DNA of 64,000 nucleotides from Patescibacteria group bacterium. GTDB lineage: Bacteria; Patescibacteriota; Saccharimonadia; UBA4664. The translations under genes were made by a program, and so were the position numbers. Of the stretch, positions 10,173-63,118 are shown piece by piece (positions within the stretch are counted from its first letter, which is position 1; the number at the start of each line of letters is the position of its first letter). The notes beneath the pieces are model-generated. The model saw nothing but the letters and a program-made list of their open reading frames with translations. It did no database searches and had not been told where the DNA came from. The stretch covers positions 72,047 through 136,046 of the forward strand of contig JAQGHG010000019.1 in NCBI GenBank assembly GCA_028288925.1. Reading direction: 5' to 3'.

Positions 10173-10706
10173 ATGCCTCGCGTTAAACCCAAAAACGACA
10201 CCACTCTCCTAGCCTCGATGCCCGTCCGGCTGGCTGTTGCCACTTTGTCCCTCGGAGCCGTGGCTATCATCGCGGTCTGGGCGATCAATCAACCGCGTCA
10301 AGCCTCCGAGGCTCAGCTCTACCAGGACACGCTCAAGCAAGCCGCCGCCGCCGAACACGATCAAAACTTCTCCAGGGCCGCCGCCGTGTACCGCGACTAC
10401 CTCAAGACCGGCCACAGCCGTCCCCAAGACCATCAGCGAATTGTTTACATCCAGCTCGCCAGCGTGGAAGGCGAAGACCAGCATTATCAGGCCGCGATTA
10501 CGGCGCTGCGAGCCGCCGCCAAGCTACCCCCCGGCGAAGACCAGGCCATTATCCAAGGTCTTGCTAGCAACTATGATCTCGTGGGCGACAAGGCCAAAGC
10601 TATTACCTATTACAAGCTCGTTGTCGAGGATCTCAGAAAAAACCCCGCGCCCGGCAGTAGCTCCAAAGCCGACTCGCTGGAACTGCATATGAAGGACCTG
10701 CGATGA
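10173..10706 (+). CDS. membrane-anchored TPR-like helical repeat protein
   Basis: Start at MPRVKPK; N-terminal TM (VRLAVATLSLGAVAIIAVWAI) then helical repeats; stop overlaps ATG of downstream secreted-protein gene (ATGA). Confidence 0.5.
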   Translation: MPRVKPKNDTTLLASMPVRLAVATLSLGAVAIIAVWAINQPRQASEAQLYQDTLKQAAAAEHDQNFSRAAAVYRDYLKTGHSRPQDHQRIVYIQLASVEGEDQHYQAAITALRAAAKLPPGEDQAIIQGLASNYDLVGDKAKAITYYKLVVEDLRKNPAPGSSSKADSLELHMKDLR

Positions 10707-12637
10707 CCATGAAGCGTGTCGCCTTAACGTTATTCTCACTGGTAGCCGTCCTCGTGCCGCTCTTCGCCGCCAACCCAGCCTCCGCCGCGACCAAATCCAC
10801 CCACACCGATCCCGGCTATTTTCTACACCAAGTCGTCACCAACTGCGGCGGCAACGTCATCCAGGAAGGCTACGACGAATGGGGCCCGAGCCAAGGCCGC
10901 CAGCTGACCGCCGCCAAATTTATCAGCCTCACCCACGCCTACCTCCGCGATACCGGCAACGGCGGCCAAAACCAAGTCGGCGCCGCCTTCATCATAAACA
11001 CCATGCTCGGCGAACCCCAAAGCCGGTGGGGCGGCGCCAGCGGCCGCTCCCGGGGCATCAAAAACGCCTTCGACCGCGAAGAAGAATGGACATTGCTCGT
11101 GCGGGCCTACGACGCCAACGGCTGGGTCAACTGGGGCAACGCCGGCCATGTCTATAACGAGCCCGGCACCCACTACAAATCCACCCTCTGGCAAGGCAAC
11201 AACGACTGCGGCAGCGGCACCGCCTGGGTCCCCAGCAAGCCCAACGACGTCGCCGAGTTCCAATACTACTACGACCTCACCGGCCTCGAGCTCATCACCT
11301 TCTACAACCGCAACGGCACCCGCTACCGCATCGACCGCCACTGCGGCAACCCGCTCGGCAGCAACTCGCCGCTCCAAAACCCTTTCAGTGTCAGCCTTTC
11401 GGCCGACCACGGAGGTTCACCGACCATATTGGGCCAGGGCCAAACGTACAACCTCGCCGTCCACCTCCAAAACCACGGCCCCGGCAAATCCTTGCCCGGC
11501 CAACTCCAGGTAGAATGGCCCACCAGCAACATCTGCAAGCCCGGCGCCAGCTGCCCGCTGAACATGTCCGATCTCTCCAATGGCTACTCATCTTCCAAAG
11601 GCTTCTATAACGGCGTGGGCATATCCGACCCCATAGTGCCACCCAATCAACCAAACTGGCGCTGGGACACCAAATCTATCGCCAGTTCGGGCAAGACTAC
11701 CGCGAACGGGGTCCTCACCTTTACCACCCTGCCCAACGCCACTCCCGGAGCCACCATTACCTTTGTCGTCTTTTTCTATCCTAGGTCAGGATTCGAAAGC
11801 ACACCGCTCCGCGTCACGGTCACGTACAAAATCGACATCGTGCGTTACCCTGGTATCCATGGGCTCAGCGGCGATATCCATGCCGGAGGCGCCCTCTGCG
11901 GCCAAACCCCCGGCGCCCACAACATCATTAAGGGTAACGCGCAATCGCTTTCCTTCGGCGAGTTCCTGATATCGGCCAGCGGCCAAGTCTCAGGCGTTGG
12001 TTCCAATAATAGCTCCTCCGGCACCACCGCCACCCTTGGGGCCCACGGTAACTACAGCACGATCTGCCGGCCCGACCTAATAGCCGCCGCCAACCTCTAT
12101 ATCAACGCCAATCCTTCCAGCACTACCGACATCTCAGGGCTCACTGTTGATGTGTCTAGCCTGAATGAAGGTATCTATTACAGTAGGAGCGGGACCTTAA
12201 GGCTTAGCGGGACCTTCACCAAGAAGATAACCATCGTGGCCCTGGGCGGATCAGTCGTTATTACCAAGCCCATCATACTCAACGCGCCCAATGTCCCCCC
12301 CACCCAAGTACCCTCCATGGGCATCCTGGCCGCTAACGACATCAACATCAACGGCGCCGCCAACCGTGTGGACGCCTACCTCTTCTCTAATGGGACAATC
12401 AATACCTGCTCCGAGGGAAAAACCGCGCCCTGTATAAGTACTCTCGTCGTCAATGGTTTCATTATGGCCCATGCGCTGGTGTTTAACCGCCTCGGCCCCC
12501 TAACTGGACCAGCCGCGACTGTCGGCGAGCAAATCAATCTGACCGGCCAGCTCTACATCAACCCCCCTATGCTCTTAGATAACGCCAGCGCGATAAACCT
12601 CCTCGAAAGCCAAGGCGAAAAACCGCCCCTCCTGTAG
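10703..12637 (+). CDS. large secreted protein with conserved C-terminal domain shared with 60646..62901 product
   Basis: Signal peptide MTMKRVALTLFSLVAVLVPLFAANPASAAT; Gly/Asn/Ser/Thr-rich; C-terminal about 260 aa (from 11850) aligns with C-terminus of the pilus-locus secreted protein. Confidence 0.7.
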   Translation: MTMKRVALTLFSLVAVLVPLFAANPASAATKSTHTDPGYFLHQVVTNCGGNVIQEGYDEWGPSQGRQLTAAKFISLTHAYLRDTGNGGQNQVGAAFIINTMLGEPQSRWGGASGRSRGIKNAFDREEEWTLLVRAYDANGWVNWGNAGHVYNEPGTHYKSTLWQGNNDCGSGTAWVPSKPNDVAEFQYYYDLTGLELITFYNRNGTRYRIDRHCGNPLGSNSPLQNPFSVSLSADHGGSPTILGQGQTYNLAVHLQNHGPGKSLPGQLQVEWPTSNICKPGASCPLNMSDLSNGYSSSKGFYNGVGISDPIVPPNQPNWRWDTKSIASSGKTTANGVLTFTTLPNATPGATITFVVFFYPRSGFESTPLRVTVTYKIDIVRYPGIHGLSGDIHAGGALCGQTPGAHNIIKGNAQSLSFGEFLISASGQVSGVGSNNSSSGTTATLGAHGNYSTICRPDLIAAANLYINANPSSTTDISGLTVDVSSLNEGIYYSRSGTLRLSGTFTKKITIVALGGSVVITKPIILNAPNVPPTQVPSMGILAANDININGAANRVDAYLFSNGTINTCSEGKTAPCISTLVVNGFIMAHALVFNRLGPLTGPAATVGEQINLTGQLYINPPMLLDNASAINLLESQGEKPPLL

Positions 12638-23634: not shown

Positions 23635-25323
23635 TCATTTCTTCTTCGTAGCCTTAGGAGTCACATAAAATTCCAAATAGCGCCCAAACATCAACCGCGT
23701 CTGCGCGTTAATCGCCGCGAACGCCGAGAAACACATACTCGTGATCGGCAGCAACGACCACTGGCCGATCATCACCAAGAACCGCCAACCCCGGTAGCGC
23801 TCCGGCTTGGGCGGTAGCGAAATCACGCTGATGAAAATGGTAATCGCAATCGTCACCGAAGCCAGCGTCAGAATCCGCGAGGTGATGATCGGCAGGTTAT
23901 GCGCCAACGACTGGTACGAAAACTGCCGGTTCAAAAACAGCGGCAGCCAAGCCACAAACGTCAAAATCAGCGGCGCCGTCGCCCACGAGAAGTGCCCCTC
24001 GAACAACCGCCCTATCTGCACCAGCTTATTACTCCAGGGGATCTTCTTGTTCTTAATCGCATTGCGTACCACGTACGAAAAATCGCTCACTCCCCAGGCC
24101 CACCGCCGCAGCTGCAAAAACTGCACCTTAAACGTCTTGAGCAGCGTCGAATCCAGGACGGCATCCTGATACACCGGCGTAAACACCGGCACCACCTCGT
24201 GGTCGCCGTCGTACGTAAAGTACGTCCGCCAGAATTGGTGGCCGTCCTCCACGATCGTCGTCACACTCCAGTAATCTGTGGCGATCAGTGCGGCTAGGCT
24301 CTGGGCGTGCGCCGCGAAGTTGCGTAGCCGGTGCGGGCGCATCGTCTCCATCAGCAGCCAAAACGAGTTACCCGTCGCGATCACCCGCATCGGCGCCGGC
24401 ACATCCCAAATATTGTTGTAAAACATCGGAATCGGCTGAAAACTCTTGTGTATGCGATTGGGGTCACTCGCGTACAAGTACGACAGGTACGCGAAATAGT
24501 TTTGGCTCGCCCGGTGGTCACTATCAAAAGTCGTCACCACCACGTGCTCCGGATCAATTCCCCGCTTCTCGACCTCGGCCGTCAGCCTACGCCCGGCGTA
24601 AGTAATGTTTCCGCCTTTGCCAATAATTTCACCTTCTAGCCCGTAGGGATGTTTTACCGCCATCGCTAGCCCAAATTTGTCACCGTAGCGCCTGATCAGC
24701 TCCTTGACGTTCGCCTCGATCTCCGCGCCGCCCCGTTCCTCGTAGGCTATCACCACCATCAGGCGCTCCAGCGGGAAGTCCACCTCGGTAAGCGACCGGA
24801 TCGAAGGGTCCAGTGTGTCCATCGACTCGTTGTATGTAGCTACGACTACCGCGTGGTACACCGTATCCGGGTCCATCAGTGTGGTGCGATGGGCCATTAG
24901 CGTGGCCAGTTGCTCCTGGTCATCCCTGAGCAGCCGGAAATGTTTGCGCGCCGGAGTGTCCCGCCACCACCATCGCCGCCGCGCATGTGGATACTTTTTT
25001 ACCAATGAACGAATCGCCTCTTCATTCTGAACAATAAATTTATCCGGGTCTTTCAGCCAGTCCAACCGGGCACTCCAGTTCAACTTCTGCGCCAAGTGTA
25101 ATCTACGGTAGCCGCGAATCAAATTTATACTCAGACGGAACGACTTGATCATCCAGTACAGATCAAAAGCGATAATAAAGTACGCCACCCACACCGGCTC
25201 TATCAGGCTGAGCACAATCGGCAATGTCAGCGTCAACCACGTCACCGCCCCGGGAAAGATCTCCAAGAGCCGCACAAACCACCGCTCATCTGCCCAGTGT
25301 GTCGTAGCGGTAGAAGTAGCCAT
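23635..25323 (-). CDS. processive family-2 glycosyltransferase (cellulose-synthase-like) membrane protein
   Basis: VVVATYNE, DSD and QLRRWAWG (QxxRW) motifs flanked by TM segments. Confidence 0.75.
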   Translation of the reverse strand: MATSTATTHWADERWFVRLLEIFPGAVTWLTLTLPIVLSLIEPVWVAYFIIAFDLYWMIKSFRLSINLIRGYRRLHLAQKLNWSARLDWLKDPDKFIVQNEEAIRSLVKKYPHARRRWWWRDTPARKHFRLLRDDQEQLATLMAHRTTLMDPDTVYHAVVVATYNESMDTLDPSIRSLTEVDFPLERLMVVIAYEERGGAEIEANVKELIRRYGDKFGLAMAVKHPYGLEGEIIGKGGNITYAGRRLTAEVEKRGIDPEHVVVTTFDSDHRASQNYFAYLSYLYASDPNRIHKSFQPIPMFYNNIWDVPAPMRVIATGNSFWLLMETMRPHRLRNFAAHAQSLAALIATDYWSVTTIVEDGHQFWRTYFTYDGDHEVVPVFTPVYQDAVLDSTLLKTFKVQFLQLRRWAWGVSDFSYVVRNAIKNKKIPWSNKLVQIGRLFEGHFSWATAPLILTFVAWLPLFLNRQFSYQSLAHNLPIITSRILTLASVTIAITIFISVISLPPKPERYRGWRFLVMIGQWSLLPITSMCFSAFAAINAQTRLMFGRYLEFYVTPKATKKK

Positions 25324-30127: not shown

Positions 30128-30511
30128 ATGCCTAGCGTTCTATATGTAGAAGACACCGAAACCATGCAAAACATGTACGGCTTCGCCCTCAAGAGAGAGG
30201 GCTTCGATGTCACTATCACCGGCACCGCCGGCGAAGCCCTCGCCCGGATCGACGAGCACCAATACGATATTATCCTCCTGGACATGATGCTCTCAGGCAT
30301 GAGCGGGATGGACTTCCTCCAAGCCGCCAACCTCCGAGCCAAGAGCCCCGGCACTAAGATAGTGGTTCTTTCCAACGTTGATAATCCCAACATCGTAGAT
30401 AAAGTTCGAGCTTTCGGCGTCAGCGCCTACCTCATCAAGGCCGACTACGAGCCGCAAACCCTCGTTGTCTATCTCAAAAACCTCTTAAAGCCCACCCCAG
30501 AAGCCAAATGA
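30128..30511 (+). CDS. single-domain response regulator (CheY-like receiver)
   Basis: D-D...D phosphoacceptor pattern (IILLDMMLSGMSG), conserved T and K positions; overlaps kinase start by 4 nt. Confidence 0.8.
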   Translation: MPSVLYVEDTETMQNMYGFALKREGFDVTITGTAGEALARIDEHQYDIILLDMMLSGMSGMDFLQAANLRAKSPGTKIVVLSNVDNPNIVDKVRAFGVSAYLIKADYEPQTLVVYLKNLLKPTPEAK

Positions 30512-32706
30512 GACTACCCGCCAAACTCATCCTTATCATCTGTGGAATGGGGCTCATTACCACCATCGTCGCCCCTATTGTCGTCTATGTAGCCGTCAGC
30601 GGAACTCTCAAGTCCACCATCTCAGCTAATCAACAAGCAACCGCCAGCACGACACTTGGGAAGATCGACCGCTTCATTTCCGAACGTATGGATGAGCTAG
30701 GCAACGTCGGCCGCGCCCAGCAATTCACCGCCTTGCTGGCCAGCCCGGACGGCACCAACCCGCAACTAGTCGAAACCGACCTCCATAGCGTCGCCCAGTT
30801 GGCCCAGGACTGGAACAACCTCACGCTCCTCGATCTCCATGGCAAAGCCGTGGCGGTTACCACCGAAAGCGATCGGAACAAAACCTTAGCTACGCTGGAG
30901 TCCAGCTTCGCCGGGCTCTACAACCGGGCCCTCACCGGCCAGACCGTCTATTCTGATGTTCTCAGATCCAATGAGGACGGCCCCACCCTCGCCATCATGA
31001 CACCCATCACCGACCGCACGGGTCAACCGGTCGGTGTCCTAGTCGGTGAGATTAATTGGAGCGCCGTACTCAGCATCCTGCACGAGCAAGGCAACGCCAC
31101 CACACTGCTCCTAAATCACAGTGGCTTGGAGATCGGCAGCAACCAAGCCGATACCCAAAATCGTATCCTCACAGCCGACCGGCACGCCTCTCCCATCTTC
31201 CAGCAAGCCAGCCACGGCGGTACCGGCACCATCGAGGCCGCCAACCCCGACAACCCCGAAGTCGCCACCCTCGCCTCGTATACCTCAGAGATAGGCTCAC
31301 GCAGTTACAAAGGTAACGGTTGGCATCTCCTCTTACTCCAGCCCACCAGCATCGCCTTCGCTCCGGCCAAAAATCTGGCTCTAGCCCTCCTAGCCGGCCT
31401 GCTCGTCGCATCGCTTGTCGTCTGTCTCATCATGTTCTGGGTCGCCCACCGGCTCATTACCCTGCCCATCCGCCGGCTCTCCACCGCTATCCAGAACATT
31501 AGCCTGGGCAACCTGGCCGAACGCCTCGAAGTCACCAGCCACGACGAGCTCGGCCAGCTCGCCACCACCTTCAACACCGTCACTACGCAGCTCGCCGCCA
31601 CCACCGTCAACCTCCAGCAAGAAAAGAGCCGCCTCGAGTCTTCCATCAACAGCCTACCCCTGGGGTTCATGCTCACCGACGCCGCCGGCGACATCATTAC
31701 CCTCAACCCCATCATGAACACCCTCCTCAACCTCAAAAACAAACCGCCCAAATTCACCAAAGGCAAGCACCAGACCGCCAACATCGCCTTCCTCCAGCAA
31801 TTGCTCGACCATTGTCAGACTACCCTCGCCAAGCGCCAAGCCTTCCACATCCCCGAGCAGTCCTACGACAACCGCATCTTCCGCCTTTTCTTCTCGCCCG
31901 TCATCCAAAACGACACGGCCATCGGTGTGGCCGTGCTAGTAGAAGACATCACCGAAGCCAAGCTCCTCGACCGCTCCAAGGACGAATTCTTCTCCATCGC
32001 CTCCCACGAGCTCCGCACTCCCCTCACCGCCATCCGCGGCAACACCTCCATGATCCAGCAATACTACGGCGAGAAGCTCAAGGACCAAGATCTCAAGGAG
32101 CTCGTCGGTGATATCCACGAATCCAGCCTGCGCCTCATCACCATCGTCAACGACTTCCTCGACGCTTCCCGCCTGGAGCAAGGCAAGATGAAGCTCACCC
32201 TGGAGCAATTCGATCTCAAACCCGTCATCGAGAGCGTCATCTACGAACTCGGCGCCCTGAGCCACGAAAAGAAAATCTATATCCGCACCGATAACACGCT
32301 CGGCACCCTCCCGCTGGTGTACGCGGACAAAAACCGTGTCAAACAAATCATCTACAACCTCACCGGCAACGCCATGCGCTTCACCGAAAAAGGCGGCATC
32401 ACCATCAAGCCCGAGGTCCAAGGCGACCAGCTCAAGGTCTACGTGACCGACACCGGCGACGGCATGAGCCCCGAGAACCAGCAGCTACTCTTTCACAAGT
32501 TCCAGCAAGCCAGCGATAACATCCTCACCCGCGACACCACCCGCGGCACCGGCCTGGGCCTCTACATTTGCCGCCTGCTTCTCGATAATATGAATGGCAA
32601 AATCAAACTCGAAAGCTCCGAGGTCGGCAAAGGCACCACCTTCAGCTTCACCCTGCCGCTCAACCCGCCCAAAAGCATCAAGGCTCCACAAGCCCCCAAG
32701 TCCTAG
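30508..32706 (+). CDS. sensor histidine kinase (TM, extracytoplasmic sensor, HAMP, HisKA, HATPase_c)
   Basis: H-box FFSIASHELRTPLTAI; N, G1 (DTGDGM) and G2 (GTGLGL) boxes. Confidence 0.85.
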   Translation: MRLPAKLILIICGMGLITTIVAPIVVYVAVSGTLKSTISANQQATASTTLGKIDRFISERMDELGNVGRAQQFTALLASPDGTNPQLVETDLHSVAQLAQDWNNLTLLDLHGKAVAVTTESDRNKTLATLESSFAGLYNRALTGQTVYSDVLRSNEDGPTLAIMTPITDRTGQPVGVLVGEINWSAVLSILHEQGNATTLLLNHSGLEIGSNQADTQNRILTADRHASPIFQQASHGGTGTIEAANPDNPEVATLASYTSEIGSRSYKGNGWHLLLLQPTSIAFAPAKNLALALLAGLLVASLVVCLIMFWVAHRLITLPIRRLSTAIQNISLGNLAERLEVTSHDELGQLATTFNTVTTQLAATTVNLQQEKSRLESSINSLPLGFMLTDAAGDIITLNPIMNTLLNLKNKPPKFTKGKHQTANIAFLQQLLDHCQTTLAKRQAFHIPEQSYDNRIFRLFFSPVIQNDTAIGVAVLVEDITEAKLLDRSKDEFFSIASHELRTPLTAIRGNTSMIQQYYGEKLKDQDLKELVGDIHESSLRLITIVNDFLDASRLEQGKMKLTLEQFDLKPVIESVIYELGALSHEKKIYIRTDNTLGTLPLVYADKNRVKQIIYNLTGNAMRFTEKGGITIKPEVQGDQLKVYVTDTGDGMSPENQQLLFHKFQQASDNILTRDTTRGTGLGLYICRLLLDNMNGKIKLESSEVGKGTTFSFTLPLNPPKSIKAPQAPKS

Positions 32707-33440
32707 CCCTCAAACTCCACCAGCACCGGCAGATGATCCGATAATTCCGTCGGCACCACCCGCGACCGCACCGGCCGCAACGCGCCTTGGTACAGCACAT
32801 GATCCAGGCGCCATTTGAGCTCGTCATAGCGCCACGGCCCAATCTCAAACGGCTTGGTCGTCCAAGTCTTTTGACTCAGTGCCGGCCCGGCATGCTTCAG
32901 CCGGCCGCGCAGCGCCTGCACCGCCTTAGAGCGCGGGGTCGCGTTCATATCACCCGCCAAGATATACGGCCCCTCCGACGTCTCCTCCAGCAGCCGCCCA
33001 ATCATCTCCAGCTTATGCGCCGACGTCCGAAAGCGCGGGTGGAACGGCAAGTGAACGCTACCCACTTTTAGCCTTATGCCAGATGGTAGTTTTACCCACA
33101 AGCTCACATAAGAGCGTTCGTCGTGTACCACCTTTCCCTGCTTCACCAAACCCTCCTGCAACACTACCCGCTCGCCTCCAAACCCGCCGAACCGCGAAAA
33201 AATACCGCACCCTACCCGTGCCGGCCCACCGTCCGGCAGCGTCATAATTCCATAATCCCAAAATCCCTCGTAACCCAAGGCAGCGGCAATATACGCACCC
33301 GCATCCGGAGTAGCCTCCTGGTAACCCTGAGTTAGCTCCTGCAAACACACCACATCCGGGTTGAGCTCCTTAATAAAAGCCGCCACCGCCTCCACATTCT
33401 CGGAGTACATGATATTCCACTGCAGGACCGTCAAAACCAT
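32703..33440 (-). CDS. endonuclease/exonuclease/phosphatase (EEP) family protein
   Basis: VLQWNI start motif, LQE, GDMN and SDHLPV catalytic motifs of EEP fold; upstream in-frame extension rejected. Confidence 0.65.
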   Translation of the reverse strand: MVLTVLQWNIMYSENVEAVAAFIKELNPDVVCLQELTQGYQEATPDAGAYIAAALGYEGFWDYGIMTLPDGGPARVGCGIFSRFGGFGGERVVLQEGLVKQGKVVHDERSYVSLWVKLPSGIRLKVGSVHLPFHPRFRTSAHKLEMIGRLLEETSEGPYILAGDMNATPRSKAVQALRGRLKHAGPALSQKTWTTKPFEIGPWRYDELKWRLDHVLYQGALRPVRSRVVPTELSDHLPVLVEFEG

Positions 33441-33574
33441 GCCCTCAGTATAAGGCCCTCCAAACAGAAATGCTCTCGACGAAATTGGGAGCATCTCCGT
33501 CAAGAGCATAGCAGCCGGTAGTAAAGAAGCCCTAGAGCGGGCCTCCCAGATACCTCCAGCGCAGAATGGGCCTT

Positions 33575-33910
33575 TTACTTCCCTCCGCCCAAGCGCGATC
33601 GCCGGCGCTTGATTGCGCCCGGAGTACGCCGCCCGAGAAAAAGTTTGAAAAGCGACGATATGCTGAAACCCGAATACTGCAGCACCGTGTCTTCGTCTTC
33701 CGTCCATCGGCCCTTCGGCCCTTCAGGGCGGCCTCGAAGTCGGGACCGCTGGACCCGAATAGAGTTCTCGCTACGACGACCTAGAAGAATATTAGCGATT
33801 ATACTGTCACGAAAAGGCGCCCATCGGATGATCCTGTTCTCTTCTTCGCTCCACTCGGGAGCCCGACCCCTGGAACCAGGCTTTTTCGGAGTTGGCGTCA
33901 ACCCAACCAC
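33575..33910 (-). CDS. small protein with two SANT/Myb-like repeats (putative DNA-binding)
   Basis: Repeats EWSEEENRIIRWAPFRDSIIANILLGRRSENSIRVQRSRL and RWTEDEDTVLQYSGFSISSLFKLFLGRRTPGAIKRRRSRL fit W-x-EE-x(n)-LGR-x-x-x-x-[IC]-[KR]-x-R Myb pattern; GTG start after AAGGAAAG SD assumed. Confidence 0.5.
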   Translation of the reverse strand: MVGLTPTPKKPGSRGRAPEWSEEENRIIRWAPFRDSIIANILLGRRSENSIRVQRSRLRGRPEGPKGRWTEDEDTVLQYSGFSISSLFKLFLGRRTPGAIKRRRSRLGGGK

Positions 33911-33983
33911 CTTCTTTCCTTGCGGCAACTGAGTACATACGACTATAAAACAAGTTAGCCCAGGCGTCGAGTATAATAGAAGT

Positions 33984-34745
33984 ATGAAAAAACTCGTTGT
34001 AGTCGCGGATGATTTTGGTCTGTGCGAATCGGTCAACACCGGCATCGTCAGATCACATCAGCAAGGGATCGTTACCGAGCTCTCGTTCATGCTGGGATCG
34101 CCTGGTACCAATCATGCCCTCCGGCTCGCCGGCGAGGAGAACATAGCCAATATCGGCATCCATATGCTGCTCAAAAACTGGCGCGACACCGGCACCCTCG
34201 TCCACCGCGCCGATTACATTAAGCTCTTTGATGAAACCTCCGAAGCCGGGATCGCCCGCCTCGTCGAAAACGAGCTCCAGGAGTTCGAAACCGTCGTCGG
34301 CCACAAACCCAGCCACATCACCTCGCAGTTCGGCATCGCGGCGCATGCCAAAGCCATGCCCAGCGTCCTGGCCTACGCCCGCCGCCACGGCATTCCGCTA
34401 CGCCAACCCGTCATGACGCTGTACGGCGACGAGCCCGAGCAAAACCTCGCCAGCCTCAGCCTCATGAAGCAAAGCGGCGCCACCACCACTGACTATTTCT
34501 TCGCCCGCATAATGGAACCGGATTACGATACATTACTAAAGCAATACCAAGATGACTTCTCTACCATCCCAGACGGCCAATCCGCCGAGCTCGCCATCCA
34601 CCCGGGTCTCGTCGGAGCCGACCTCGCAGCCATGAGCAGCCTCGTTCACGAGCGCGCCCGCGACCTTCGGCTAGCCACCGACCCACAGCTGAGATCCTGG
34701 CTCGACAATCACGGCATCAAGCTCGTTCCCTACGACGAAATCTAG
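33984..34745 (+). CDS. ChbG/YdjC-family carbohydrate deacetylase
   Basis: N-terminal VVADDFGLCESVNTGI and HxxH metal-site pattern typical of YdjC family. Confidence 0.75.
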   Translation: MKKLVVVADDFGLCESVNTGIVRSHQQGIVTELSFMLGSPGTNHALRLAGEENIANIGIHMLLKNWRDTGTLVHRADYIKLFDETSEAGIARLVENELQEFETVVGHKPSHITSQFGIAAHAKAMPSVLAYARRHGIPLRQPVMTLYGDEPEQNLASLSLMKQSGATTTDYFFARIMEPDYDTLLKQYQDDFSTIPDGQSAELAIHPGLVGADLAAMSSLVHERARDLRLATDPQLRSWLDNHGIKLVPYDEI

Positions 34746-35658: not shown

Positions 35659-36150
35659 CTAGGGTCGGCGGAAGTTGCACGTCGAGTAGCTGTCTTTACC
35701 GTTCGTCGCGCGCGTTGCGTAGTCGCGATCAGGGTAAACCCGAACCCACGTCCGCCGTTGACGGTTGGTGATCTTGCCGAGGTCGATCGCCATCTCGCCG
35801 CCCACGAATGATGCGGGGAGAGTGACGTCGGGGTCGGTGATGGTGATTGTGCGGGTTCCCGCCACCGCATCGGTTCCGATGGTCTCGTCGAAGTACAGCT
35901 TGCCGAATCCAAGGTATCCACCGTCACCGTGGAAGTCGTCCCTGCAGGTCTCCTCCAGGGGCACTAGCCCCATCATGAAGGCCTGGAGTTCGGCGACCGA
36001 GTACAGGCCGCCCTCGGGAACGACGATGAAGTCGACTGTATGTGTCCAGTAGCCCCAGGGGTCAGGGAAGTACGTGTGCTCCTCGACGGCGAGGATAAGA
36101 GCCTCACCGTTCGAGCCGAGCGCCCTGTGTACAGTGGCCAGTTTGCTCAT
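35659..36150 (-). CDS. hypothetical protein
   Basis: 163 aa with ordinary composition; heads putative operon with ArsR and YciI-like genes. Confidence 0.45.
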   Translation of the reverse strand: MSKLATVHRALGSNGEALILAVEEHTYFPDPWGYWTHTVDFIVVPEGGLYSVAELQAFMMGLVPLEETCRDDFHGDGGYLGFGKLYFDETIGTDAVAGTRTITITDPDVTLPASFVGGEMAIDLGKITNRQRRTWVRVYPDRDYATRATNGKDSYSTCNFRRP

Positions 36151-53118: not shown

Positions 53119-54345
53119 CTACTTGAGGTTGTCGACCCCGCCCGAGCCCACCAGCGAGTATACCGGCAGCAAGATAGCCGCGATTACACCACCCACTACT
53201 ACGCCCATCACTACCATCAGCAACGGCTCGATCGTCGTCGAGAGGTTCTTCACCTCTTCATCCACTTCGTTTTCATAGTAACCGGCCACGCGGTCCAGCA
53301 TCGAGTCGATCGCGCCGGACTGCTCGCCGATCTTGACCATCTGCGGCACCAGCCGCAGGAACGTATCTTGGTTCTCCAGCGTAGACGAGAGTGCTTTGCC
53401 ACCCTTCACACTGCTCATCGAGTGCTCAATCGTCTTGGCCACATGCACGTTGTTGATCGAGTTCGTCACGATCCGCAGTGCCTCCAGCATCGGGATACCG
53501 CTCGCCAGTAGGGTCCCCAGGGTCCGGCTAAACCGCGCCATGTACACCTTGCGGAAAATCTTCCCAAACAACGGCACGTTCAGCTTGAAGCTATCAATCG
53601 CCGACCGTCCGCCCTCCGTCTTGAGCCACGCGCGGCCCGCCATAGTCAGCCCGCCCAACGCGATCGCCGTCAGCCACCAAAAGTGCAAAATAAAGTTCGA
53701 CGCGGCGATCATAATGGTGGTCAAAAATGGCAGGTCCTTGTGTAAGTCCTTGTACAGCGCGCCCACCTGCGGCAGCACCGTGGTAAGCATAAAGATCAGT
53801 ACACCGAAGATCACCAACAGCACGATCACCGGGTACACCATCGCGCCCCGGATCTTGGCCAAGATGGCCGCGTCCTTCTCCTGCTGGCTGGCGATCCGCT
53901 CCAACGCCTTGTCGAGCGAGCCGGAAGCCTCACCGGCCGCCACCAGCGACACGTAGATGTTGTTGAATACCTCCGGATGCGCCGCGAACGCCTGGCTCAG
54001 GCTCGTGCCGGATTCCACGGTCGTCACGATCGTCCCCACCACCGCCGCCAGATTCTTGTTGGTAATCTGCTCCTGCACCGTCCGCAGCGACTGGGTCAGC
54101 GGCAAGCCGGCGTTGATCAGAGTCGAGAGCTGCCGCGTAAAGATTACCCGGTCCTTGGCGCCTACGCCCTTACCTAGGCCGGATTTGGCCAGTAGCCCCG
54201 AAGATTCCTTGCTTTCGATCGAAATCGGAAACAAACCCTGGCTCATCAGCAACTTGGCCGCCGCCTGCTCATTCTCAGCCTGTACATCAGCCTTTACCGT
54301 CTCGCCGGAATCAGTCTTGTGCGCCGTGTAAGTAAAAGTCTGCAT
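53119..54345 (-). CDS. pilC: type IV pilus inner-membrane platform protein (GspF family)
   Basis: Two T2SF repeats, 408 aa, 3 TM. Confidence 0.85.
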   Translation of the reverse strand: MQTFTYTAHKTDSGETVKADVQAENEQAAAKLLMSQGLFPISIESKESSGLLAKSGLGKGVGAKDRVIFTRQLSTLINAGLPLTQSLRTVQEQITNKNLAAVVGTIVTTVESGTSLSQAFAAHPEVFNNIYVSLVAAGEASGSLDKALERIASQQEKDAAILAKIRGAMVYPVIVLLVIFGVLIFMLTTVLPQVGALYKDLHKDLPFLTTIMIAASNFILHFWWLTAIALGGLTMAGRAWLKTEGGRSAIDSFKLNVPLFGKIFRKVYMARFSRTLGTLLASGIPMLEALRIVTNSINNVHVAKTIEHSMSSVKGGKALSSTLENQDTFLRLVPQMVKIGEQSGAIDSMLDRVAGYYENEVDEEVKNLSTTIEPLLMVVMGVVVGGVIAAILLPVYSLVGSGGVDNLK

Positions 54346-54348
54346 AAC

Positions 54349-55419
54349 CTACCCGCGCATTAAGCGCTCTAGCTCCTGCAAATCTACCGCGAAATTTTTG
54401 GCCTCATCGTATGTGATCTTACCGGCTTGGATCTCTTGCACCAACGTGCGGTCCATACTCTGCATGCCGTACTCGCCGCCGGTCTGGATGGCCGCGTCGA
54501 GCTGGTGTGTCTTACCCTCACGGATAATGTTGCGTACCGCCCCTGTAGCTACCAAGATCTCCGTCACTACCGCCCGGCCGCCGCCGATGGCCGGCACCAG
54601 CCGCTGGCTCACGATGCCCTGAAGCATACCCGCCAGCTGCACCCGGATCTGCTGCTGTTGGTGCGGCGGGAATACGTCGATCATGCGGTCGATACTCTGC
54701 GCCGCGCTGTTGGTGTGCAGCGTCGCCAGCACCAAGTGGCCCGTCTCCGCGATGGTCACGGCCGCCGCGATCGTCTCTAGGTCGCGCATCTCACCGATCA
54801 GCACCACGTCCGGGTCCTGCCGCAAGCTCGACCGCAGCGCCGCCGCGAACGAGTAGGTGTCGTAGTGAATCTCGCGCTGTACCACGATCGACTTCTTGGA
54901 ATTGTGCGCGTACTCGATGGGGTCTTCGATCGTCAGAATGTGGCAGGCCCGGTTGGTGTTGATCGAATCCACCATCGCCGCCAGCGTAGTGCTCTTACCC
55001 GAACCCGTCGGGCCCGTTACTAGTACCAAACCCCGTGGAAATTTGGTGAAATCAGTCAGGATCTTGGGCATCTTCAGCTCTTCCAACGTCCGAATCTGAG
55101 CTGGGATCAACCGCAGCGCCGCCGCCAAGTTCCCGCGTTCATGGAAGGCATTTACGCGAAACCGGCCATAATTTCCGAAAGCAAACGAGAAGTCGACTTC
55201 CTTGTCTTTCAACAAAATTTCTTTTTGGTCATCGTCTAGAATCGAGAACGTCAGCCGCTCCACATCCCCCGCGTCCAGCGGAGCCATATCTTCGATCGGC
55301 TTAAGCTTACCGTCCACCCGCAGCATCGGCGCCAATCCTACCTGGATATGCAGGTCCGAAGCATCAAACCGGATCACTTGCTCCAGCAGTAGCTCAATCT
55401 TTAACGCACTTTTTTCCAC
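54349..55419 (-). CDS. pilT: type IV pilus retraction ATPase
   Basis: GLVLVTGPTGSGKSTT Walker A, Asp box, His box (ATLHTNSAAQSIDR), 356 aa. Confidence 0.85.
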   Translation of the reverse strand: MEKSALKIELLLEQVIRFDASDLHIQVGLAPMLRVDGKLKPIEDMAPLDAGDVERLTFSILDDDQKEILLKDKEVDFSFAFGNYGRFRVNAFHERGNLAAALRLIPAQIRTLEELKMPKILTDFTKFPRGLVLVTGPTGSGKSTTLAAMVDSINTNRACHILTIEDPIEYAHNSKKSIVVQREIHYDTYSFAAALRSSLRQDPDVVLIGEMRDLETIAAAVTIAETGHLVLATLHTNSAAQSIDRMIDVFPPHQQQQIRVQLAGMLQGIVSQRLVPAIGGGRAVVTEILVATGAVRNIIREGKTHQLDAAIQTGGEYGMQSMDRTLVQEIQAGKITYDEAKNFAVDLQELERLMRG

Positions 55420-55496
55420 AAAATCACCTCAAGAGTTATCCCTATTAAAGCACAAGGGGTATGGGGATGTACACTGTATGTCCTTTTAATCCCGTG

Positions 55497-56210
55497 TCAT
55501 TTTCCATACCGCTCGGCGCTATAGGCCTCTCCGCGCTCGATCAAAGGCCAATACGGCGCGAAGCGCTCCTCCCAAAACCGGCGCCCAATAGCAAAGCCCA
55601 GACGTTCAAATTCACCCTCACGCGGTTTTTCGCCCTCAGCCAGCCGCCGCACATCAAACTGCGTCTGGTGGCAGGCCATAGCCGCGAAGCGCTTCCGCCG
55701 CACTTGGTCGTCGCTCGGATACCAAAGACCACCCTCGGCGGGGCCAAAAAGCTCCGCCACCAGCCCCCAAACCTCCACCGCCACGCCCGCATCAACCGCC
55801 GCCCAGGCGGCCTCATGAACCGCCTGGTGATCCGGGTGACCATCAAAGCCCTTCGGCCCGGCCGTAAAGATCCGGCCAATCGCATGCCGCTCCACAACCT
55901 GCCCGATCAGTTCGGCCAAAGCCGGCACATGCCCGGCCAGCTCGCCATCCGGAAACCGCGAAGCCGCCAAGCCGAAGCCGTCCGGATACAGCTGGCGCTC
56001 GCGCGGCAGGCCCAGCTCCCGCAATCCCCGCTCCGACTCCCGCCGCCGCAGCCCGGCCAAGCGCTCACCCGGAGTATAGCCCTTCACGGTGCCGGCCCCA
56101 CTATCGGTCACGATCAGCGCGAAACAGCCGGGCTCACCCAGCACCAGAGCCGGATGCATCCCTTCCGGATCATCACAGTGCGCACCGATAATCAGCGAGC
56201 GCATAGGCAC
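55497..56210 (-). CDS. PIG-L/LmbE-family N-acetylglucosaminyl deacetylase
   Basis: IIGAHCDDPEG (AHPDDE-like) and GHPDHQAVH motifs; embedded between pilB and pilT on same strand. Confidence 0.7.
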   Translation of the reverse strand: MPMRSLIIGAHCDDPEGMHPALVLGEPGCFALIVTDSGAGTVKGYTPGERLAGLRRRESERGLRELGLPRERQLYPDGFGLAASRFPDGELAGHVPALAELIGQVVERHAIGRIFTAGPKGFDGHPDHQAVHEAAWAAVDAGVAVEVWGLVAELFGPAEGGLWYPSDDQVRRKRFAAMACHQTQFDVRRLAEGEKPREGEFERLGFAIGRRFWEERFAPYWPLIERGEAYSAERYGK

Positions 56211-56220
56211 TCCTTCGTTC

Positions 56221-57996
56221 CTAATAATCTGCCGCCACCCGCGCTACTTCTTCGAGCGTCGTGAAGCCATTGAGCACTTTTAGATAGCCGTCTTGCTTCA
56301 TCGTCAGCATGCCGTCGGCCGTCGCCTGGTTTTGGATTTCGCTCGTGGTAGCGTGCCGCAACAATAATTTCTCCATATGCTCGGTCATGGAAAATACTTC
56401 GTAAATCCCAATCCGGCCCTTATAGCCCTTCACGCATTTGCTGCAACCCTTGGCCACATAGATCGGAAACTCCGGCAGATCCGCCAAAGGTAGTTCCTCA
56501 TAGCCCAAATCCTTCTTGGCCTTCTCCATCTCTTCCTTGGCCTTCGGCAATACCGCTCCCAGCGTAGCAATGATCGACTTTGTCTCGCTCTCGCCGCTCT
56601 TGGCCTGCACCTTGCAGTGCTCGCAAAGCTTACGCACCAGCCGCTGGCCAATCACCGTGTTGATTGTACTAGCGATCAAAAACGGCTCGATGCCCATATC
56701 CAGCATACGCGGGAGCACCCCGGCCCCCGAGTTGGTGTGCAGCGTGCTCAGCACCACGTGTCCCGTCAGCGCCGCCTGGATAGCCAAATCCGCCGTCTCT
56801 TTGTCCCGGATCTCCCCTACCAGCACAATATTTGGGTCCTGCCGCAGTATACTGCGCAATCCGCTGGCAAACGTCAGCCCCACATCCGTGTTGATCTGAA
56901 TCTGATTAATCCCGTCCATCTTGTACTCTACGGGGTCTTCGAGCGTCACGATGTTTACCGACACATCCTTGAGCTCCTGCACGATCGCGTACAACGTGGT
57001 GCTCTTACCCGAGCCGGTCGGGCCGGTACTAAGCGTCATGCCGTGCGGCTTATGAATACCATCGGCGATCACCCGCAGCGACCGCCCCCGGAAGCCCAGC
57101 GCGTCCAGGGTGAGGATGCTCGAGTCCTTGTCCAGCAACCGGATCACCACCTGCTCACCCCACACCACGGGCGAGATCGCGATACGCAGGTCAATCTCGT
57201 TGTTCTCGGAGCTAATCTGAAACTGCCCGTCCTGCGGTACCCGGTGTTCATCAATCCGCAAGTTCGCCAAAATCTTAATGCGCGAAATCAGCGCCGGCTC
57301 AATACTCTTGGGCAGCGTCATAGTCTCCTGCAAGATGCCGTCGATCCGGTAGCGAATCTTCAGCTCCTTCTCGCGCGGCTCGATGTGAATATCGGAAGCG
57401 TGGCTCTGCGCCGCGTAGTCCAAAATCGCGTTCAATGCACGGGTAATCGGCGCGTCCTGCACCAAATTCTGCAAATCCTTGGGGCTCTTCGTCTCTGCCT
57501 GCGGATGATCGTCCACCCGCTCCACATCCATCGCGGCCGAGAGGTCCGCCGCCACATCGCTGCGAAACTCCGCCAAAATATGGTCGATCGACGCCCGCGA
57601 AGCCAAATACACCGTGACGGTATGCCCCATCTTGCGGCTCAAGAAGTCCACCGCCTGAATGTTCGTCGGGTCGAGCATGCCCACCGCCAACCGGCCCTGC
57701 TGCATACCGAACGGCACGGCCATATACGTCTCGGCCATCTCCCGCGGCAACATCCGGGTAATGTCTTCCGGCGCGCTAATCTGCGTCAAGTTTACATACG
57801 GGAAACCCATAGCCTTGGCCGAAATCCGCGTCAAATCCTCCTCGCCTACCAAGTTTTTCTCGGCGATATAGGCAATAAGAGGCTTCGACTCCTTTAAGGC
57901 GTCGACTTTTGCTACTTCCAGCTGAGCTTTATCGAGCAGCTTGTTAGTGAGCAGCAGTTCTTCAATTTTATGCTGACTCTCAACGGAGAGCATCAA
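56221..57996 (-). CDS. pilB: type IV pilus assembly ATPase (GspE family) with N-terminal GSPII_E_N domain and Cys4 zinc site
   Basis: Walker A TGPTGSGKSTTL, CEHC...CSKC tetracysteine, 591 aa. Confidence 0.85.
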   Translation of the reverse strand: MMLSVESQHKIEELLLTNKLLDKAQLEVAKVDALKESKPLIAYIAEKNLVGEEDLTRISAKAMGFPYVNLTQISAPEDITRMLPREMAETYMAVPFGMQQGRLAVGMLDPTNIQAVDFLSRKMGHTVTVYLASRASIDHILAEFRSDVAADLSAAMDVERVDDHPQAETKSPKDLQNLVQDAPITRALNAILDYAAQSHASDIHIEPREKELKIRYRIDGILQETMTLPKSIEPALISRIKILANLRIDEHRVPQDGQFQISSENNEIDLRIAISPVVWGEQVVIRLLDKDSSILTLDALGFRGRSLRVIADGIHKPHGMTLSTGPTGSGKSTTLYAIVQELKDVSVNIVTLEDPVEYKMDGINQIQINTDVGLTFASGLRSILRQDPNIVLVGEIRDKETADLAIQAALTGHVVLSTLHTNSGAGVLPRMLDMGIEPFLIASTINTVIGQRLVRKLCEHCKVQAKSGESETKSIIATLGAVLPKAKEEMEKAKKDLGYEELPLADLPEFPIYVAKGCSKCVKGYKGRIGIYEVFSMTEHMEKLLLRHATTSEIQNQATADGMLTMKQDGYLKVLNGFTTLEEVARVAADY

Positions 57997-60645: not shown

Positions 60646-62901
60646 TCAATTTAATGGCGGCCTCTCACCCTGAGTCTGGAGCAAGTTAATCGTCGCGGCA
60701 CTATCAAACAAGATGGGTGGGTTCAAATATAGTTGGCCCGTCAGATTAATCCGCTCACCTACGGTGGCCTGGGAGACCGAAACCAACGGCCCCAGCCGCC
60801 GGAACGATATATCACGCGCCATCAGGAAGCCGTTCACGAGCAACATATTCTGGCAGGCCGCGGCCTGCCCCTCTTTACAGGTATTAATCGTACCGTTAGA
60901 GAACAGGTAAGCATCCACCTGGGTCGCGGCGCCGTCAATGAGCAAATCATTCGCGGCGATAATACCCATCGAGGGAACATTAGCCCCAATGGTACTAGTG
61001 GTACCCAGGGTAAGCGGACCATCAACCTCGACCCTACCGGCCAGCACGACGATCGTAATCTTGTTGTGGAACTGGCCGTGGAGCTTCACCACTTGGCTAT
61101 CCAGCGGCCCAGGCGGGTATCCACCCGTCACGAAGTACGCGCCCGCCGCCAAATTGGTCACATCGATGTTGGGGAAAGTTGAGATCGAGTTCAGCGAAGT
61201 ATACGGCGAACCATTGTTGAGATACATCGTCGCGAGACTCACCAGATCGGGCCGGCAAATCGCGTAGTAATTTCCCAGGTTCCCAGAGTTGCCAAGGGTC
61301 GCTGCCGATCCACCCGGCTTATTATTCGAGCCAAAACCGCTCACCGAGCCGCTCGCGCTTACCACGTACTCCCCCACCGAAGTCGACTGGGAGTGGCCAT
61401 GGATGGTATTGCTGTTGTTTATGAGCGCCGGACCGCACAAACCACCCCCGGCGTGCACATCACCACTCTGCCCAATGATCGCGGGGTAATGAGGCGATGC
61501 CACGTTAAACGAAATGCTGGAACGGGCCGGCGCACCGCCGCTCGGCGTCACGTCCTCATTGAAGGTTATGGTCTGGCCGTCACAAGCCGGGTTCACGGTA
61601 TAGACAAAGGTATTGGCATTCGAATCCGCGCCATTATTTACTTTCCGTGCCGGCCAGGTCAGCACCCCGCCATAACCCGCGCCGTTACGCCCGGTAATGG
61701 CAGCGCCGGGCAGAGGAGCCGACGAGACATATTTGGCGCATATCGGCAACGTCACCTTCATGGTCACCATCTCGCTCGTATCGGGACCATTGTTGTGCAT
61801 CCGCGGATTGAGCGTATATCGTGTAATCCCATCGCCTCGTAGCGGTCCGGGTGGCTGCAGCGTACCCGCGGGCGCCACTATGCGAGCTGTCATTTGGTAG
61901 CACTTCTTGATGTAGTTGTAGCTATCAAACGGCATCCACAGCTCCACCCCATTGCGCGAATCCACATGGTGCCACGTCCAGGTGTATTTATGCCCTCGAA
62001 TAAACGTCTCACTCCGCTTCTTGCCCTGGCTGTTGCCACCCAACTGGGCGTTCGACAGGCTATCCACCTGCTGGTTGAGCGTATCATCATGCAAATCCCA
62101 TGAGATATAACCACTCTGGTTACCGGCGCCGGCATCGGCGTCGTACCACTGCATATCCTTCTTGACCGTAGCGGTGCCCAAGTCACAATCCGGCGCGAAC
62201 TGGAACTTAAAGTCGCTATGCGTGTACGGCGGGCTCAAATCCATCGGCCGCTGAATTACCGCCAACGGGAACGATGCCGTATCCTGAGCGTTGTAGGTCA
62301 CGTAGGCCCCAGCCCCGTTCACATCTACCTTAAAGGCGTTCAAGCCACCGGCGTACTTCCCGCCCGGACTCGGATCCACCCAATACACCTTTACCCGCAC
62401 CAAATGATTCCCTTGGTCATCGGCCGCCACCACCGGCAGGCCCGCCAGGCTAATCGTGCTCCAGCCGTTCACCGTCATATTCCAACCGTTCACCACCTTG
62501 GGGGCGCCTACCAGCGCGCCGTTCGCGTTCAAGGTCTGAAACTCATACTTCACCTGCAATTCCCGCGCCGGCGCCCGGTTGCAGGCGCCCGAATCCGGCG
62601 TGCTGGGGCTGTCGTAGTTACCGCCCCGGCCGCCGCTGCAATACCCGCCGTCGAAGATCCGCACCGAATTCGGATTACCCGGGTAAATCAGCTTCACATA
62701 CGTCGTCGGAGCGTTCAAAAACGAGCTGCCGCCATAGCGCGACACCACCAAGAAGTGGCTGTTGTTATCGTCGGGCAACGTGCCGGAGATGGCCTGCACG
62801 CTCAAGGCTCCCGCCACCGCGCTGGCCACCGATACGACCGCCACCAGCAAAATCTGGGCCAGTCTAGTCTTTGGATGCAATCGTTGCCACAGCCGCATCA
62901 T
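60646..62901 (-). CDS. large secreted protein at head of type IV pilus locus; C-terminal domain paralogous to 10703..12637 product
   Basis: Signal peptide MMRLWQRLHPKTRLAQILLVAVVSVASAVAGALSVQA; C-terminal about 280 aa (60646..61490) aligns with first paralog at roughly half of positions by eye. Confidence 0.7.
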   Translation of the reverse strand: MMRLWQRLHPKTRLAQILLVAVVSVASAVAGALSVQAISGTLPDDNNSHFLVVSRYGGSSFLNAPTTYVKLIYPGNPNSVRIFDGGYCSGGRGGNYDSPSTPDSGACNRAPARELQVKYEFQTLNANGALVGAPKVVNGWNMTVNGWSTISLAGLPVVAADDQGNHLVRVKVYWVDPSPGGKYAGGLNAFKVDVNGAGAYVTYNAQDTASFPLAVIQRPMDLSPPYTHSDFKFQFAPDCDLGTATVKKDMQWYDADAGAGNQSGYISWDLHDDTLNQQVDSLSNAQLGGNSQGKKRSETFIRGHKYTWTWHHVDSRNGVELWMPFDSYNYIKKCYQMTARIVAPAGTLQPPGPLRGDGITRYTLNPRMHNNGPDTSEMVTMKVTLPICAKYVSSAPLPGAAITGRNGAGYGGVLTWPARKVNNGADSNANTFVYTVNPACDGQTITFNEDVTPSGGAPARSSISFNVASPHYPAIIGQSGDVHAGGGLCGPALINNSNTIHGHSQSTSVGEYVVSASGSVSGFGSNNKPGGSAATLGNSGNLGNYYAICRPDLVSLATMYLNNGSPYTSLNSISTFPNIDVTNLAAGAYFVTGGYPPGPLDSQVVKLHGQFHNKITIVVLAGRVEVDGPLTLGTTSTIGANVPSMGIIAANDLLIDGAATQVDAYLFSNGTINTCKEGQAAACQNMLLVNGFLMARDISFRRLGPLVSVSQATVGERINLTGQLYLNPPILFDSAATINLLQTQGERPPLN

Positions 62902-63118
62902 GGTTAGAATGGGTCCTTGCCCACGGTCGGGTTGGGAAAATGCGCCACATAATACTGCCAAGCGGCATAGCCGGCGCCACCGATCAGAAACGACACCAAC
63001 ACCACCCCCACGATAACAATCAAAAACTTATGACTCTTCGCAGGCTGAACTACCTGGGGCATCCCGTTACTCACCTTAATATTCTTATGCTACCACAGGC
63101 CTAGTGCTTTAACAGGCC

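Follow-up and report, generated by a model that had tools for sequence, protein, structure and literature searches.

The window analysed here is a 64,000-nucleotide stretch from the genome of an uncultivated Saccharimonadia bacterium. In it, a short minus-strand reading frame that appears to encode a basic protein with two Myb-type repeats lies between an EEP-family (endonuclease/exonuclease/phosphatase) gene and a divergent YdjC/ChbG-type deacetylase gene. Saccharimonadia are episymbiotic CPR bacteria with reduced genomes and few recognised regulators, and very few transcription factors are known from them. The features at and around the locus, in window coordinates, are:

30508..32706, plus strand: histidine kinase gene (dCache-HAMP-HisKA-HATPase), the synteny anchor to metagenome contig L081
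32703..33503, minus strand: EEP-family gene, 3' of the Myb-type gene (Exo_endo_phos, E = 7.9e-27; start uncertain, 33440-33503)
33575..33901, minus strand: putative Myb-type coding sequence, 108 aa from TTG 33901 (alternative start GTG 33910, 111 aa), with stop TAA at 33577..33575
33590..33712, minus strand: Myb-type repeat 2 (GRWTEDEDTVLQYSGFSISSLFKLFLGRRTPGAIKRRRSRL), predicted helices 71-79, 87-91 and 97-108 in 111-aa numbering
33737..33859, minus strand: Myb-type repeat 1 (PEWSEEENRIIRWAPFRDSIIANILLGRRSENSIRVQRSRL), predicted helices 22-30, 36-43 and 48-59 in 111-aa numbering
33860..33901, minus strand: N-terminal basic arm MTPTPKKPGSRGRA, placed by alignment with the related protein P0007
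33908..33915, minus strand: Shine-Dalgarno-like GAAGGTGG, 6 nt 5' of TTG 33901
33914..33921, minus strand: Shine-Dalgarno-like AAGGAAAG, the choice of the initial annotation, which would serve GTG 33910
33942..33970, minus strand: promoter-like TCGACG-17 nt-TATAGT, a consensus match only, in the 82-bp divergent intergenic region common with the YdjC gene
33984..34745, plus strand: divergent YdjC/ChbG-type deacetylase gene (E = 1.3e-34), product identical to MDB5179041.1, 'chitin disaccharide deacetylase [Patescibacteria group bacterium]'

Both flanking genes are as the initial annotation described them, and the neighbourhood as a whole (histidine kinase, EEP gene, YdjC, YCII, ArsR, a hydrolase and a tRNA) is an ordinary chromosomal one. 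No phage or integrase genes were found within 6 kb on either side of the Myb-type gene, and the phage or mobile-element setting of PHROG-type proteins was not found at this locus. The kinase and EEP genes converge from the plus and minus strands and overlap by 4 bp at 32703-32706. Because a scan found no terminator-like site between the Myb-type gene and the EEP gene, co-transcription of these two genes is possible. In one genome each of 185,579 GTDB species, the YdjC protein has no full-length relative above about 30% identity, short N-terminal segments alone reaching 35-52%, and a search of the same genomes through this neighbour found no syntenic locus. The YdjC gene seems to be accessory to this Saccharimonadia MAG or to have been acquired horizontally.

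Several other properties of the window can be recorded here. Its threonyl-tRNA synthetase is 100% identical to MDB5179009.1, from a Patescibacteria group bacterium MAG, and the next relatives of this enzyme, 77-85% identical, carry Candidatus Saccharimonadales or Saccharimonadia labels, which together with the identity of YdjC to MDB5179041.1 marks the genome as CPR/TM7-type. GC skew on the plus strand is strongly negative between 30000 and 38000 (-0.1 to -0.42 in 300-bp windows) whichever strand the genes occupy, for example in the plus-strand kinase gene and the minus-strand EEP gene, which points to a pronounced replication-strand asymmetry. This skew lowers the codon scores of plus-strand genes when the model is trained on minus-strand genes. 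GC content dips to about 0.50 at 33750-34050, against 0.57-0.64 around it, a stretch that takes in the divergent promoter region together with the 5' part of the Myb-type gene. The ORFs at 60646-62961, 10703-12637 and 23635-25323 (771, 644 and 562 aa) have no Pfam domain at E <= 1e-5, and neither does a 163-aa ORF at 35659-36150, near the Myb-type gene, at E <= 1e-3; CPR genomes typically contain such unannotatable proteins. Genes for a T2SSE ATPase (E = 4.7e-127) and a T2SSF platform protein at 53119-57996, of a type IV pilus or type II secretion system, fit the pilus-dependent episymbiotic lifestyle described for Saccharibacteria.

The minus-strand frame, by sequence inspection, is free of stop codons from 34057 to the TAA at 33577..33575, and no in-frame ATG occurs between 33577 and 34045. 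As first reported, a GTG at 33910..33908 is preceded by AAGGAAAG at 33921..33914, and translation from this GTG yields 111 residues that contain the originally quoted repeat peptides verbatim. An in-frame TTG at 33901, with GAAGGTGG upstream, is nevertheless probably the true start instead of GTG 33910, because the start and Shine-Dalgarno sequence of the positional ortholog P0007 (see below) align there. The window context, GAAGGTG followed after 6 nt by TTG-ACG, corresponds in this alignment to GGAGGTG-N7-GTG-ACG in P0007. Counted from TTG 33901, the protein has 108 residues, 19 of them Arg, with a computed mass of 12.4 kDa and pI of 11.7. A longer product of 156 aa, started at an ATG, was ruled out since it would run 62 bp into the opposite-strand YdjC gene. 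Further upstream, a promoter consensus scan found two sites where 0.3 were expected, both of them predicted sites only, and the block TTGYTTTATAGT of the promoter-like region recurs 5' of P0007 in a DNA alignment with L081.

The composition of the frame argues against coding status. GC by codon position is flat (0.58/0.57/0.58, compared with about 0.62/0.41/0.74 in neighbouring genes), and the synonymous-codon score, -0.20 per codon, falls below all 51 equal-sized pieces of Pfam-supported genes taken from the window. Codon usage this unusual would fit a foreign origin. Despite this composition, homology decides the question, and the relatives recovered by phmmer indicate that the ORF at 33575..33901 is a real gene. 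In an exhaustive search of 1.84 billion cluster representatives, 82 proteins reached E <= 1e-3 and 10 of these reached E <= 1e-10; the top match had E = 3.2e-21, and single proteins aligned in as many as seven separate stretches. A word-indexed search of 5.8 billion proteins gave no match, pattern scans with tblastn confirmation found none in GTDB genomes, JGI metagenomes or IMG/VR, and tblastn against phage and plasmid records was likewise without a match. Viral contigs were not amenable to a pattern scan with the alignment A2 (the ORF plus 40 two-repeat segments of its relatives), which is too variable.

Of the start variants of the ORF, four were looked up (108, 111, 117 and 156 aa; in-frame starts further upstream would also allow 153 and 154 aa), and these four and the antisense product are absent from a 15-billion-protein collection. 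The same collection does contain the neighbouring YdjC protein, and so the Myb-type gene was probably never called in the source annotation. The third codon positions of the two opposed frames coincide, so that composition cannot tell the frames apart. The opposite-strand ORF 33609..33932, which the initial annotation had raised as the possible real gene, has no family match in Pfam whereas the minus-strand product has homologs; it was rejected as a gene and reads as the usual shadow frame.

A single close relative of the window protein was found. P0007 has 171 aa and three repeats, is 37% identical to the window protein at 91% coverage, and is encoded at 118-633 of L081, a 1,140-bp JGI metagenome contig on which it was called as a gene by JGI. 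Because L081 also bears the C-terminal end of a histidine kinase akin to that at 30508..32706 in the window (tblastx: 78% identity, 82 residues; protein alignment of the C-terminal ~100 residues: 76%), P0007 is a positional ortholog of the Myb-type gene in a related organism. Repeats 1 and 2 of the window protein match repeats 1 and 2 of P0007, and the third repeat of P0007 is absent in the window copy. P0007 has its own Shine-Dalgarno sequence (GGAGGTG), a GTG start and a terminator with a 14-bp stem. On L081 no EEP gene lies between P0007 and the kinase, and the linkage of the EEP gene to the Myb-type gene is not conserved there. At L081 633-835 the Myb-like gene, with its strong terminator, abuts the kinase in the place held by the EEP gene in the window. 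The presence or absence of the EEP gene is an insertion or deletion difference between close relatives, and the region is fluid, given that L081 lacks the EEP gene and has a terminator and a third repeat.

Conservation beyond this pair is narrow. Neither synteny nor a Myb-like ORF was found at any of 79 other metagenome loci that share the kinase C-terminus at 53-72% identity, which suggests that the Myb-type gene is, as far as sampled, confined to a narrow lineage. The conservation of the ORF that the initial annotation proposed to check is seen in P0007, whose start aligns with TTG 33901, and not at the other kinase-anchored loci. JGI labels P0007 a 'transposase'. The sole support for this label is an HTH_23 match below threshold (24.5 versus 24.6 bits), and no transposase catalytic domain was found in the window protein, P0007 or the flanking genes; the label is probably an over-annotation. 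Separately, L081 carries 5' of P0007 a 24-nt direct repeat (41-64 and 98-121, 71% identity) that has no counterpart in the window, one copy lying over a TATAGT promoter-like box and the other over the Shine-Dalgarno sequence and start.

The two repeats of the window protein are related to each other, as was first proposed. Their local BLOSUM62 score is 84 compared with 20.0 +/- 3.8 in shuffled sequences (z = 16.7), a value that none of 5000 shuffles reaches, and 15 of 43 residues are identical without gaps, each half being 41 residues long. At the DNA level the repeats are 48% identical overall, with values of 0.49, 0.60 and 0.35 at codon positions 1, 2 and 3. The order 2 > 1 > 3 is what a coding duplicate should show, and it marks the repeats as an old duplication kept at the amino-acid level rather than a recent DNA repeat. 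A basic linker of nine residues separates them, and the protein ends directly past repeat 2.

Pairwise alignment shows that the arm motif KPGS(R/K)GR(A/P)PEW is common to the window protein and P0007, and the arm region is 54% identical over 39 aa by tblastx. The core of the arm in P0007, KGRP, is AT-hook-like; in the AlphaFold2 model of the window protein the arm has low confidence (pLDDT 57-69). Only the first tryptophan of each repeat is kept (W20 and W69 in 111-aa numbering), the second being Ile or Leu and the third Arg or Ser. The hydrophobic core of three tryptophans (or aromatic residues) that marks Myb/SANT domains is absent from the ORF and likewise from the consensus of the prokaryotic family.

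Standard profile searches, which the initial annotation had proposed, are not significant for the ORF itself. Pfam PF00249 gives E = 0.4 and 11.3 bits, below the gathering threshold of 24.4, PF13921 gives E = 1.2, and a search of NCBIfam, including the RsfA model, returned nothing. The homologs of the ORF, on the other hand, pass Pfam Myb_DNA-binding PF00249 with E = 1e-12 to 3e-36 (123.9 bits for P0005, 59.9 for P0003). PHROG 323 ('transcriptional regulator, D5-like') matches the ORF at a borderline E = 7.9e-4 over residues 19-108, matches homologs down to 3e-84 and matches the ortholog P0007 at 3.9e-14. Searched alone against 177,635 PDB sequences, the ORF finds c-Myb R2R3 best (1h88_C, E = 3.2e-4), in an alignment that covers residues 16-99 of the 108-aa protein and so both repeats, and the top five matches are all Myb proteins. 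Profile A2, built from the alignment described above, matches c-Myb at E = 1e-17 and further matches B-Myb, Trichomonas Myb3, WER, CDC5 and SNAPc4, whereas it reaches a GcrA structure only at E = 0.48.

Structure prediction agrees with these matches. AlphaFold2 with A2 returns a model of mean pLDDT 76.9 in which six helices form two predicted three-helix bundles, each with a helix-turn-helix made by its helices 2 and 3. The top Foldseek matches in the PDB are all Myb DNA-binding domains, with E-values that are not significant (best 0.67), and the matches in BFVD are consistent but also non-significant; such E-values are to be expected when two mobile domains make up a query of 108 residues. 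Superposition of one repeat on c-Myb R3 (1idy) gives an rmsd of 2.5 A over 45 columns. Taken together, the Pfam and PHROG matches of the homologs, the c-Myb sequence matches, the A2 profile and the predicted fold argue that the ORF is a divergent member of the Myb/SANT superfamily. The original description of a compact two-repeat helix-turn-helix protein of Myb/SANT type is upheld by these results and by the ortholog. Standard Pfam thresholds miss divergent short members of this kind, and exhaustive HMMER and PDB sequence searches recover them.

We consider it probable, from sequence comparison, modelling and analogy with c-Myb, that the 108-aa basic two-repeat protein is the product of a real small gene of Saccharimonadia, a minimal stand-alone member of the PHROG 323 type, and a small DNA-binding regulator. 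Its two-repeat layout with a basic linker would be the same as that of the R2R3 DNA-binding domain of c-Myb. By this analogy helix 3 of either repeat (…SENSIRVQRSRL and …TPGAIKRRRSRL) may sit in the major groove of adjacent DNA sites, and the KPGSRGRAP arm could add contacts to the minor groove or the backbone. On this model the protein would read DNA sequence as a small transcription regulator. Its most economical targets would be its own promoter and the divergent YdjC promoter, both in the 82-bp intergenic region, or the downstream EEP gene. No repeated operator-like motif was found in the 82-bp region.

Several other accounts of the same locus have to be weighed. The most radical is that there is no gene: the open frame would have arisen by chance or as a shadow within 480 bp of intergenic DNA, or the true gene would be the opposite-strand ORF 33609..33932. 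The codon statistics are poor in both frames, the coinciding third positions cannot separate them, and the sequence is absent from the public protein collection. Against this stand the 82 significant homologs of the minus-strand product and its direct match to c-Myb, the plus-strand product without a family match, the internal protein repeat at z = 16.7, and a syntenic ortholog called as a gene by JGI; the non-gene reading is close to refuted. An unlikely account, although a much more plausible one, is that the frame is a decaying remnant: a P0007-like gene with three repeats would have lost the third on insertion of the EEP gene or in another rearrangement, leaving a functionless or weakly expressed relic. 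P0007 does have three repeats followed by a terminator and the kinase, in the place that the EEP gene occupies in the window. The synonymous codon usage of the ORF is also the worst of the tested stretches, with low GC3, and the gene was likely left uncalled in the source annotation, four start variants being absent from a collection in which YdjC is present. Against a relic, the frame is unbroken over its 108 codons, each repeat stops where a complete domain should (…RSRLGGGK-stop), the family-invariant W, E, L and R are kept in both, the repeat-to-repeat pattern shows constraint at the amino-acid level, and the gene is preceded by a promoter-like site and a Shine-Dalgarno-like sequence. Two Myb repeats suffice for specific DNA binding in c-Myb R2R3, which further counts against the loss of a third repeat having left a relic.

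The fold could also be that of a protein that does not read DNA sequence, either a protein-interaction module or a basic protein that coats the nucleoid or binds RNA non-specifically. Domains of the SANT branch bind proteins, not DNA, for example in chromatin complexes, and a pI of 11.7 with 19 Arg in 108 residues favours non-specific nucleic-acid binding. No operator-like repeat was found upstream of the gene. The best matches, though, are to DNA-binding Myb R2R3 and not to SANT domains, the third helices of SANT domains are acidic whereas those of the window protein are strongly basic, and relatives are fused to enzymes that act on DNA (helicases, HNH nucleases and methylases); we regard this alternative as quite improbable. 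A more ambitious reading accepts the gene and its DNA binding and sees in it a lineage-specific, minimal 'R2R3-only' Myb protein with an AT-hook-like arm, descended from a phage-type repeat protein and domesticated in Saccharimonadia for chromosomal regulation or as a nucleoid-associated protein. We hold this to be rather unlikely. If true, it would offer a tractable prokaryotic model of the two-repeat Myb mode of DNA reading and one piece of evidence that eukaryotic R2R3 Myb domains came from prokaryotes or phages.

The preferred reading, a small two-repeat DNA-binding regulator, would add a likely missed small gene to a CPR/Saccharimonadia genome and illustrate, in a minimal form with two repeats, the Myb branch found in bacteria and phages. 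Knowledge of prokaryotic Myb domains as such is unchanged, as Pfam, PHROGs, phage annotations and the literature already contain this family. Two qualifiers of the initial annotation prove overstated. The domains are not especially 'eukaryote-type', given that the nearest relatives form a family spread widely over prokaryotes and phages (PHROG 323, replication modules of phages, enzyme fusions), and they are hardly 'rare in bacteria', the family being common in bacteria and phages. Myb-type helix-turn-helix factors of firmicutes and phages have already been described, those of jumbo phages as an expansion related to firmicute RsfA (PMC7824862).

Relatives of the window protein are tandem arrays of a unit of about 47 residues with the consensus WTxEEDxIL-(12-15)-LPxRTxxAIxxRAxxLGL. 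The repeat is usually present in 3 to 13 copies or fused to helicases (ResIII/Helicase_C), HNH nucleases or methylases. Members occur in phage early/replication modules beside RusA, ERF, SSB and DnaC-like genes. Two separate Myb-like genes of ~200 aa per such module (RusA, ERF, SSB, IstB/DnaC-like) are seen on two phage-like contigs, at 4309-5766 of L163 and at 5152-6609 of L164. Named phage members include Listeria phage B025 gp44 and B054 gp65, and the 'Myb-like DNA-binding domain protein' of SPbeta-like Staphylococcus phages; mycobacteriophage members are annotated as HNH endonuclease or methylase. One member is encoded on a bacterial chromosome, next to a type VI secretion cluster. P0122, a short Myb-like relative with 36% identity, is found just 3' of a gene with weak OLD-like TOPRIM and DUF3226 similarity (E about 1e-3) on contig L082 (1-930 and 1141-1641), a setting that may be a defence or mobile-element context. 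We know of no member of this prokaryotic/phage PHROG 323-type Myb branch with a tested function.

Among known systems, GcrA (PF07750) and the firmicute RsfA-like factors share with the ORF a bacterial three-helix helix-turn-helix and the pattern W-T-x-E … L-G-x-x-R-x-A-V-x-x-K-x-x-R-L-G-L. Some relatives of the ORF match PF07750 (P0018 at E = 1.8e-11, and also P0100). Membership of the ORF itself in either group was rejected, since it matches neither PF07750 nor the NCBIfam RsfA model. GcrA, moreover, has a single such domain and a sigma-70-binding C-terminal part that the ORF lacks.

Eukaryotic R2R3 Myb proteins (c-Myb, B-Myb, Trichomonas Myb3 and plant WER; PF00249) resemble the ORF in having two tandem three-helix helix-turn-helix repeats joined by a short linker. 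Both begin helix 1 with WT-EED and enter helix 3 with LPGRT-x-x-AIK. The ORF repeats, in contrast, are about four residues shorter between helices 1 and 2, end helix 3 with R-x-R-L-G instead of W-N-x-x-L, and keep only the first of the three tryptophans, and the ORF is without the transactivation or regulatory region of eukaryotic Myb. The short helix 1-2 spacing, the single tryptophan and the R-x-R-L-G end of helix 3 are common to the whole prokaryotic family.

The PHROG 323 proteins have the same repeat unit as the ORF, W-[ST]-x-E-E-[DEN]-x-[IVL]-[ILV] … L-x-G-R-[RT]-x-x-[AS]-[IV]-x-x-R-x-x-x-L, and like it are basic, retain the first tryptophan and have another residue in place of the third. 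Most of them carry 3 to 13 repeats or are fused to enzymes and reside in phage modules, whereas the ORF stands alone with two repeats, an extra KPGSRGRAP N-terminal arm and an ordinary location in a CPR chromosome.
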